DNA of 64,000 nt from Prevotella sp. (GTDB lineage: Bacteria > Bacteroidota > Bacteroidia > Bacteroidales > Bacteroidaceae): contig JAZLIN010000014.1 of the NCBI GenBank assembly GCA_045617365.1, positions 5,208-69,207 of the forward strand, read 5' to 3'. Position 1 is the first letter of the stretch, and every line of letters begins with the position of its first letter. Positions 3,973 through 4,806 of the stretch are shown in pieces. Both the position numbers and the translations under genes were made by a program. Below the pieces are notes generated by a model that worked only from the letters and a program-made list of their open reading frames with translations, made no database searches and was not told the origin of the DNA.

Positions 3973-4806
3973 ATGGCAAACAATAACGACATGGATCTTG
4001 TCCTTGGTCTTTTTTTGGACAATGACCGATTCACAAATTCGGACTCATATGACCAAGATGATGACGCTTGTAATGATGACGAATATGATTACTCACCTGA
4101 ACCTGATGAAACTGTCCAGACTAACAATTGGGAATCATTCAACGACTATAGTACAAACTCCGAAGAGGGTGACTACTATGATGATGGTGACTACTATGAT
4201 GATGGTGACTATTATGACGACGACGATGATTATGATGATGACGACGATGACTATGACGACGACGATGATTATGATGATGACGATGATGACGACGATGATG
4301 ATGACTATGATGACGACGATGACGATGACTATGATGATGATGACGACGACGATGACTATGATGATGACGACGACGATGACGACGACGATGACGACGATGA
4401 CTATGATGACGACGACGATGACGACGATGACGACGACGATGACTATGATGATGACGACGATGACTATGATGATGACGACGATGACTATGATGATGACGAC
4501 GATAATGACTATGATGACGACGATGATTATGATGATGACGATGACGACGATGATGATGATGATGACGATGACGACGATGAAGATGACGATGAAGATGAAG
4601 AAGATGATGATTGCGATAATTCCGAAAGTAATTCATTCGATGCTTATCATATTACAGACGATTGTATTGCGTGCGGCACATGCATTGATGAGTGTCCAGA
4701 GGAAGCGATATCAGAGGGAGATGTGTTTTATATTAATCCTAATTACTGTGTTGGGTGCGGTACATGTGTCGATGTATGTCCAAATGAGGCTATTATTTTA
4801 GGATGA
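3973..4806 (+). CDS. Asp/Tyr-rich repeat protein fused to a C-terminal 2x[4Fe-4S] ferredoxin
   Basis: Residues from 4642 read AYHITDDCIACGTCIDECPEEAISEGDVFYINPNYCVGCGTCVDVCPNEAI (two CxxCxxCxxxCP motifs, like the Bacteroidota short ferredoxin). They are preceded in frame by ~148 codons of (D)nY repeats and a ~65 aa acidic N-terminus. Confidence 0.85.
   Translation: MANNNDMDLVLGLFLDNDRFTNSDSYDQDDDACNDDEYDYSPEPDETVQTNNWESFNDYSTNSEEGDYYDDGDYYDDGDYYDDDDDYDDDDDDYDDDDDYDDDDDDDDDDDYDDDDDDDYDDDDDDDDYDDDDDDDDDDDDDDYDDDDDDDDDDDDDYDDDDDDYDDDDDDYDDDDDNDYDDDDDYDDDDDDDDDDDDDDDDEDDDEDEEDDDCDNSESNSFDAYHITDDCIACGTCIDECPEEAISEGDVFYINPNYCVGCGTCVDVCPNEAIILG
4168..4611 (+). repeat. In-frame GAY-codon low-complexity tract: 3x GDYYDD, then D5-16 runs separated mostly by single Tyr
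   Basis: Read directly: 444 bp of mixed GAT/GAC codons with interspersed TAT/TAC. Confidence 0.95.

Follow-up and report, generated by a model that had tools for sequence, protein, structure and literature searches.

The window analysed here, a 64,000-nucleotide stretch of a Prevotella sp. genome (GenBank assembly GCA_045617365.1, contig JAZLIN010000014.1, positions 5,208–69,207 of the forward strand), carries at 3973–4806 on the + strand a gene in which a long tract of aspartate punctuated by tyrosine is fused in frame to an intact clostridial-type 2x[4Fe-4S] ferredoxin. Striking in composition and real in sequence, this gene is nevertheless a singleton for which a neutral origin is plausible. 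The best overall explanation, which we favour tentatively and with slightly less than even confidence, is that it encodes a chimeric accessory ferredoxin carrying a tolerated polyanion, and not a precursor of a modified peptide.

Architecture of the fusion gene

Open reading frame (ORF) analysis of the window revealed a single uninterrupted frame of 277 amino acids (aa) plus a stop codon, starting with an ATG at 3973; a TTG at 3964, upstream of this ATG, is likewise in frame. The translated protein (~32 kDa) contains 143 Asp and 25 Tyr residues, and its 159 acidic residues against only one basic residue give a computed net charge of about −158. If the protein is made, no bacterial protein has, to our knowledge, been described as more acidic. 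The view of the initial annotation that an extreme polyanion is fused in frame to an intact 2x[4Fe-4S] ferredoxin is thus borne out, as both parts lie in one frame and both cluster motifs are intact.

The N-terminal 65 aa (3973–4167) are acidic and contain Tyr, with no signal peptide and no family match revealed by sequence analysis and homologue search; Met7, within this region, is the last in-frame Met of the fusion protein. The Asp/Tyr tract proper comprises 148 codons (4168–4611) and is followed by a short, non-repetitive unique linker (4612–4637, ...CDNSESNSF...), delimited by its sequence and by blastn edges, that leads to a ferredoxin block shared with another locus. The ferredoxin domain occupies 4645–4803 (aa 225–277) and was delineated by profiles and alignment. 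Downstream of the stop codon, at 4867–4936, a long hairpin followed by a T-run is predicted, being the sole terminator-like site on the + strand within 3300–5300. The tract is predicted to be disordered, and an AlphaFold2 model of the fusion protein, built on a 10-row alignment, was uninformative (mean pLDDT, the predicted local distance difference test, of 43).

Motif and profile place the C-terminal domain in the clostridial ferredoxin family (Pfam Fer4 PF00037 / Fer4_9 PF13187; NCBIfam FdxA_fam NF058577), with which it has both CxxCxxCxxxCP motifs in common. The Pfam Fer4 profile matched the C-terminal 53–55 aa in two stretches (E 1e-15), and the FdxA_fam model aligned over positions 2–52 of 52 with a score of 63.3 bits, a marginal miss of its cut-off of 65. 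Both cluster motifs, CIACGTCIDECP and CVGCGTCVDVCP, are present, and all eight Cys and both Pro residues are invariant in the alignment with relatives. The fusion protein may bind two [4Fe-4S] clusters and act in low-potential electron transfer. The domain resembles the 55-aa housekeeping ferredoxin encoded on another contig (C83) of the same genome in size (~55 aa), in the identical ...LG C-terminus and in 72% of its residues. Unlike free-standing clostridial-type ferredoxins, it is preceded by 224 residues, 148 of them belonging to the Asp/Tyr tract. That this type of ferredoxin is normally a free-standing protein, as the initial annotation had stated, was confirmed in 150 genomes of the same order, where its stop-to-stop frames measured 56–121 aa, with the exception of a tandem pair (171 aa) and a single match truncated at the end of a contig; the corresponding frame of the fusion gene measures 289 aa, beyond the range of a free-standing small protein.

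Translation of the ferredoxin part alone from an internal start, which would have undone the fusion, is excluded: a scan of the fusion frame found no in-frame ATG, GTG or TTG just before the ferredoxin. Where the housekeeping copy reads MAYVISSDC, the fusion gene reads DAYHITDDC, with the initiator Met replaced. Since no usual start codon precedes it, the ferredoxin can be made only as part of the fusion.

Given that the source is a 170-contig, 92%-complete metagenome-assembled genome, that repeats are hard to assemble, and that the ferredoxin block is also present in another context, it was considered whether the length of the tract or the join between N-terminus and ferredoxin had been misassembled from low-complexity metagenome reads. 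Such an artefact is highly improbable. Unique sequence is found at both ends of the tract, on the 3′ side as the Glu-containing tract end ...DEDDDEDEEDDD and then the linker at 4612–4637; the tract is the only poly-Asp one across the 3.44-Mb assembly, leaving no second tract from which a chimera could have been formed. Moreover, no exact repeat inside the tract exceeds 51 nt, a length below that of common assembler k-mers and reads, so that nothing in the tract precludes its assembly. A gross misassembly is thus improbable, although the number of 21-nt units near 4432–4503 could be off by one or two. Altogether, the fusion gene is almost certainly a real, uninterrupted gene for a chimeric ferredoxin.

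Codon composition and repeat structure of the Asp/Tyr tract

The original estimate of about 120 Asp in 148 codons proved accurate. The tract encodes 122 Asp, 18 Tyr, 4 Glu, 3 Gly and 1 Asn; Asp accounts for 82% of the codons and acidic residues for 126 of the 148, with Asp runs of 11, 13, 14 and 16 residues. Asp is specified by 62 GAT and 60 GAC codons, and Tyr by 16 TAT and 2 TAC. The central 121 codons consist of GAC (56), GAT (52), TAT (12) and AAT (1) and nothing else, so that position 2 is invariant, position 3 is never a purine, and no stops occur.

Tandem Repeats Finder detected periods of 18, 21, 24, 27 and 42 nt. The first belongs to the start of the tract, where GDYYDD is repeated 2.8 times with 96% matches (4168–4217), and repeat and codon analysis characterised the tract as an imperfect tandem array with the other four. 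A 21-nt unit, GATGATGACGACGATGAC-TAT (GAT GAT GAC GAC GAT GAC TAT), is repeated exactly, and the Tyr-to-Tyr spacing in the tract centre is 6, 7, 6, 12, 8, 9, 15, 14, 7, 7, 8 and 6 codons. Since the periods lie between 18 and 42 nt, the 21-nt unit is reused exactly, and the central 121 codons draw on a four-codon vocabulary, slippage of Tyr-containing units of 18–42 nt offers the best explanation of the tract. The earlier claim that slippage alone cannot account for the Tyr spacing is valid for a pure GAT repeat only; duplication of Tyr-containing units gives just such a pattern.

The T/C variation in the tract is synonymous in the Asp frame only, exchanging Met and Thr in the +2 frame and His and Arg on the reverse strand, and the Asp frame is therefore the sensible one. 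Two other candidate coding frames were rejected, namely a Met/Thr-rich +2 frame (3998–4801) and a His/Arg-rich ORF on the reverse strand (4139–4636, −); the T/C variation changes the encoded residues in both, and no known domain is attached to either. The reverse ORF, which starts with ATG and would encode 165 aa opposite the tract, is in all likelihood a side effect of the repeat, with nothing found in its favour.

Recent origin of the fusion

The nearest ferredoxin among 5.8 billion proteins is that of P0148, a 200-aa protein encoded on a metagenomic Logan contig (L008), with 94% identity over the ferredoxin. At the DNA level, blastn revealed a 349-bp block (4638–4986, + strand), comprising the ferredoxin and ~180 nt of 3′ untranslated region (UTR) with the hairpin, that is 96.8% identical to positions 701–1049 of L008 and has two sharp edges, beyond which the flanking sequences of the two loci are unrelated on either side. 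The N-terminal 125 aa of P0148 form a helical domain unrelated to the N-terminus of the fusion protein. Finding so similar a block behind an unrelated N-terminal domain indicates that the fusion is recent. In both proteins, an acidic Tyr-containing low-complexity linker stands directly before the ferredoxin, and such a linker therefore predates the split between them; it comprises 24 Asp/Ser/Tyr residues in P0148 (DSDSYSSSSDYDYSDSDSSSDTYY) versus 148 Asp/Tyr residues in the fusion protein, and its final ~10 codons in P0148 still appear alignable with the ...DNSESNSFDAYH of the window. The fusion gene is thus probably a recent chimera that originated with slippage and is young and lineage-specific. 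In this scenario, a short acidic Tyr-containing linker would have been enlarged about six-fold in the window lineage by slipped-strand duplication of Tyr-containing units of 18–42 nt.

Searches for further relatives were negative. No match to the N-terminal 68 aa was found among the 5.8 billion proteins; an exact 29-nt pattern from the conserved 3′ UTR was absent from genome and metagenome collections, and a degenerate 44-nt pattern for the ferredoxin-specific peptide GDVFYINPNYCVGCG from metagenome, genome and viral collections; in 400 family genomes, no match was obtained for the 3′ UTR section of the block. A tblastn search of phages and plasmids with the fusion protein matched only the ferredoxin domain, and a literature search yielded no publication in which a poly-aspartate tract is connected with a ferredoxin. 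Low-complexity ORFs of this kind may be under-represented in protein collections, which qualifies the protein-based negatives.

The strongest rival to an accessory ferredoxin is a neutral or decaying young ORF, formed when a ferredoxin cassette recombined behind acidic low-complexity sequence and was extended by slippage, whose product is seldom, if ever, fully translated and has no function. The gene is a singleton with an N-terminus that lacks homologues, the ferredoxin-specific DNA pattern and the 3′ UTR of the block are missing from the collections and family genomes mentioned above, and a 250-aa protein encoded upstream of it (see below), used as a marker, was unmatched in 60 related genomes. 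The 96.8% identity of the shared block points to a recent event. Repeat units of 3n leave the frame open without selection; the two copies of the block differ at only seven coding sites, four of them nonsynonymous, and at four non-coding sites, too few for selection to be measured; poly-acidic runs cause abortion of translation (10.1101/2021.02.02.429294; PMC11162784); and the ORF is not called as a gene in the public protein collection. All these points speak for a neutral ORF. However, all eight cluster Cys and both Pro residues are intact, the gene is framed by a proper ATG and a terminator, and the mixed usage of GAT and GAC reduces slippage, as in a maintained tract. The single foreign codon (AAT) among 121, with no stops and no third-position purine, fits constraint and extreme youth alike; at the 3.2% divergence seen in the shared block, neutrality would lead one to expect about 4–5 foreign codons, and the difference is not significant. 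Taken together, we regard a neutral ORF as unlikely but as a serious contender.

Between the two loci, conservation of the ~180 nt that follow the ferredoxin stop codon equals or exceeds that of the coding part (4 versus 7 differences). An Rfam scan of 3400–5300 gave only chance-level matches and none for the 3′ UTR of the shared block, the sharp 3′ edge of which, at 4986, is without explanation; with the exception of the terminator hairpin, the RNA fold of this UTR was not more stable than those of shuffled sequences (z −0.77). No flanking direct or inverted repeats that could mark an insertion were found. On L008, the P0148 gene begins ~200 nt after a tRNA gene (L008 1–60) has reached its 3′ end, a typical site of island insertion.

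A neighbouring radical SAM module with its own precursor peptide

The fusion gene lies on the same strand as, and 448 nt downstream of, a module of three radical S-adenosylmethionine (SAM) genes. Profile and ORF analyses identified the 3′ part of radical SAM/SPASM gene 1 (1–764, +; the full gene encodes 326 aa and begins 216 nt before the window), radical SAM gene 2 (761–1639, +; 292 aa, HxsC-like but far under the family cut-off), and radical SAM gene 3 (2410–3525, +; 371 aa). Between the latter two, a 250-aa cluster-specific protein is encoded (1642–2394, +; profile and gene-table comparison), which was found in its own genome only, with no match in 60 related genomes. An 83-aa ORF between radical SAM gene 3 and the fusion gene (3536–3787, +) had no family match by profiles, formed a singleton cluster, and had no relative in viral contigs. 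Both radical SAM gene 3 and this ORF, as neighbours of the fusion gene, are in the public protein collection.

Close homologues of radical SAM protein 3 number more than 165 and come from Bacteroidales and Firmicutes. Among 14 homologue loci, the radical SAM core is kept, mostly as the full trio, and none contains a run of at least eight Asp codons or a pair of 2x[4Fe-4S] motifs. When three of these clusters were aligned with the window, the DNA proved similar only as far as the radical SAM gene 3 stop codon. Comparison of window positions 1–3525 with the loci L004/L005 and L041–L048 revealed that the slot after the three-gene core varies: it is occupied by an opposite-strand gene, by a gene for a 660-aa CTP-transferase/citrate-lyase-ligase-like protein (Muribaculaceae), by one for a non-ribosomal peptide synthetase-like protein with adenylation, peptidyl carrier and condensation (A-PCP-C) domains, or, in Firmicutes, by a gene for an unannotated 190–250 aa protein, in some cases with a ScmC-like protein, followed by a FAD-dependent oxidoreductase gene. 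In the Firmicutes clusters, an adjoining gene for 228–230 aa gives weak or faint ScmC matches. The 250-aa protein precedes radical SAM protein 3 in Bacteroidales, while an unannotated Firmicutes gene that is comparable in size, the only property compared, follows it.

In all five clusters examined, a short ORF of 26–34 aa ending in ...(A/M)C(S)CW(I/V/A)EN(P/N) is located shortly before radical SAM gene 1. In the Prevotella genome it encodes MKENKQKANRKDCELQSMIACSCWVENP (contig C14, 4752–4838, that is, 369–455 nt before window position 1), and the corresponding peptides are MEEKKVNKEECELMSIIACSCWIENP in L002 (5146–5226) and MSTKEVNKLECELNSIIAMACWIENP in L006 (5929–6009), while those of L041 (4925–5029) and L044 (4928–5032) end in ...ECDEASLFDMCSWAENN and ...SELSCLAEMCSWKEAD, respectively. 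These small Cys/Trp peptides had no NCBIfam match and are probably the true precursors of an apparently undescribed family resembling ribosomally synthesised and post-translationally modified peptides (RiPPs).

These observations bear on the RiPP idea, which the initial annotation had mentioned but set aside. In one form of it, the Asp/Tyr protein would be a giant RiPP-like substrate, the Tyr-Asp-Asp repeats of which would be cross-linked or otherwise modified by the adjacent radical SAM/SPASM enzymes in a cyclophane-type reaction, with the ferredoxin donating electrons in cis. Three radical SAM genes do lie nearby on the same strand, and the best matches of radical SAM gene 3, all sub-threshold, are to cyclophane and ether maturases such as DynA, AmcB, YhhB, GrrM and FxsB. 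An aromatic-X-X motif, as Y-D-D or Y-Y-D, occurs ~18 times in the tract, which is also the trivial outcome of a Tyr-punctuated Asp repeat. The arrangement thereby resembles radical SAM/SPASM precursors with repeated aromatic motifs (triceptide/cyclophane systems and HxsA), in which such repeats lie beside paired radical SAM genes. In contrast to those systems, every family match here is far under its cut-off, and conservation of the module does not extend to the Asp/Tyr gene. The score of radical SAM gene 2 against HxsC was 67.7 bits (cut-off 267.9), those of genes 1 and 3 against HxsB were 37.8 and 44.6 bits (cut-off 370), and no His-Xaa-Ser repeat is present, which places the locus outside the His-Xaa-Ser system (HxsABCD). 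Among the cyclophane maturase families XyeB, GrrM, FxsB, YhhB and AmcB, the best score was that of AmcB with 74 bits against a cut-off of 425, and the module falls outside these families too.

More importantly, the module has its own conserved small precursor, with the C-terminal (A/M)C(S)CW-EN in both Bacteroidales and Firmicutes, and the Asp/Tyr protein is therefore not needed as a substrate. The Asp/Tyr protein contains nothing similar to the conserved core motif of this precursor, and its gene shows no co-occurrence with the module, as neither a poly-Asp run nor a ferredoxin accompanies it in any of the 14 related loci. The loss of similarity at the radical SAM gene 3 stop codon and the presence of the ferredoxin block at a locus without radical SAM genes likewise argue against such a substrate. 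Thus, the fusion gene is very probably not the RiPP precursor of the three-gene module, and the idea of a giant substrate modified in place is disfavoured to the point of being most improbable. The three-radical-SAM module appears as a widespread gut-bacterial cassette, for the chemistry of which the Asp/Tyr gene is no guide.

Possible function of the fusion protein

If translated, the fusion protein would carry electrons at low potential in the cytoplasm and bear a long polyanion that is probably disordered; most plausibly, it could feed electrons to the radical SAM enzymes, the genes of which are co-oriented with its own and horizontally acquired. Its tail would be tolerated or mildly useful, for example as an electrostatic tether to basic partners or in cation binding, and would not be a modified substrate. 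A specific ferredoxin is often required by foreign Fe-S and radical SAM enzymes (PMC8896826). A possible link to the radical SAM genes is suggested by their co-orientation with the fusion gene, their common low-GC island, the absence of an intervening terminator (none was predicted on the + strand between the radical SAM genes and the fusion gene, the sole one following the ferredoxin), the basic nature of radical SAM proteins 1 and 2 (computed isoelectric points of 8.0 and 8.8), and the location of the fusion gene in the slot for accessory genes, which elsewhere include FAD-dependent oxidoreductase genes. A role as reductant for the radical SAM enzymes nevertheless remains a doubtful proposal, one that we think could hold but probably does not.

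Several observations weigh against an accessory ferredoxin. No ferredoxin was found in any of the 14 related radical SAM clusters checked, and the genome already has the housekeeping ferredoxin on C83. On L008, the neighbours of the P0148 gene are a tRNA gene and a TonB-receptor-like gene, with no radical SAM genes. A possible promoter box of its own, TAGTTTTG at 3849–3856 (+), 117 nt upstream of the ATG, would uncouple the fusion gene from the operon; it matches the Bacteroidota −7 consensus TAnnTTTG, on consensus match only, and the motif is not enriched in the window. Exact look-up, including five alternative starts or frames and the reverse-strand frame, did not find the fusion ORF in the public protein collection, where it was apparently not annotated as a gene. 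The argument that synonymous-only variation proves selection on the tract was rejected, because a GAT/GAC/TAT vocabulary with unit slippage explains this variation. Finally, runs of 10–20 acidic residues stochastically abort translation in E. coli (10.1101/2021.02.02.429294; PMC11162784), and the abortion caused by a mid-ORF run of 20 Asp is relieved only partly by the ABC-F protein YbiT (PMC11162784); the full-length fusion product may therefore be scarce. In its acidic runs, the tract resembles the intrinsic ribosome destabilization sequences described in E. coli (the reporters GFP-20D/20E and MgtL) and far exceeds 20D (PMC11162784). Those sequences are short natural motifs or engineered reporters in E. 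coli, none of them as long as the tract considered here.

One could also hypothesise that poly-Asp and redox centre together form a functional device. In one version, the ~150-residue poly-Asp, with a charge of about −150, would act as an electrostatic scaffold or cation sponge, gathering the basic maturases and the Lys-rich leader of the precursor around a dedicated electron source; in another, ribosome destabilization on the poly-Asp would make a translational gate, with ferredoxin output dependent on Mg2+ and ABC-F. In either case, a homopolymeric tract would serve a bacterial redox protein in a new way, and we consider both versions to be long shots.

As a chimeric accessory ferredoxin, the fusion protein, if made, would offer a natural stress test for poly-acidic translation, and a pair with and without the tail in which the effect of a polyanion on a low-potential ferredoxin (partner choice, metal binding and cluster stability) could be followed. 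If the tract is instead a neutral runaway repeat, it would illustrate that gene fusion plus trinucleotide-type expansion can yield a 32-kDa ORF almost overnight. As for the functions listed in the initial annotation (chelation, nucleic-acid mimicry, phase separation, docking, and Tyr sulfation or phosphorylation), computation neither supports nor excludes them.

Genomic island setting

The block of radical SAM and fusion genes has a GC content of 31–39%, compared with 46.7% for the genome, and the fusion gene is followed at 5133–6093 by genes for an MNT-type nucleotidyltransferase, a truncated HigB-like ORF and a HigA-like helix-turn-helix protein. On account of its low GC content and these toxin-antitoxin-type genes, the block is considered an accessory island.

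This setting admits the alternative that the polyanion is the point of the protein, serving on a mobile or defence-type island as a high-capacity Fe/Ca/Mg binder or as a mimic of nucleic acid or polyphosphate, with the ferredoxin as a redox-active or stabilising anchor. The charge of about −158 with one basic residue would suit such a role, as would the position on a low-GC island beside genes for an MNT nucleotidyltransferase and HigB/HigA-like proteins; binding of cations is a property of acidic repeat proteins. In addition, a ferredoxin with 70% identity is fused to a Shedu SduA_C domain in another protein, P0149, which suggests that ferredoxin modules are used in proteins of the defence type. 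However, no defence or anti-defence family was matched in PADLOC or in PHROG-type phage records; the PADLOC scan returned only generic viperin-like similarity for radical SAM proteins and nothing for the fusion protein. Beyond the ferredoxin domain, no Pfam, NCBIfam or PADLOC match to a DNA-mimic or anti-restriction family of the Ocr or ArdA type was found, and homopolymers differ from these DNA mimics, which are folded arrays. Nothing connects the ferredoxin with the storage of metals, and the gene is a singleton. A function centred on the polyanion is therefore judged improbable.

P0149 is a 308-aa protein found in two loci (L009 2938–3864; L010 6001–6927), with an N-terminal clostridial-type ferredoxin followed by the Shedu-type SduA_C nuclease domain. 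Its gene adjoins an IS4-type transposase gene, and the protein may be a redox-linked variant of a defence nuclease.

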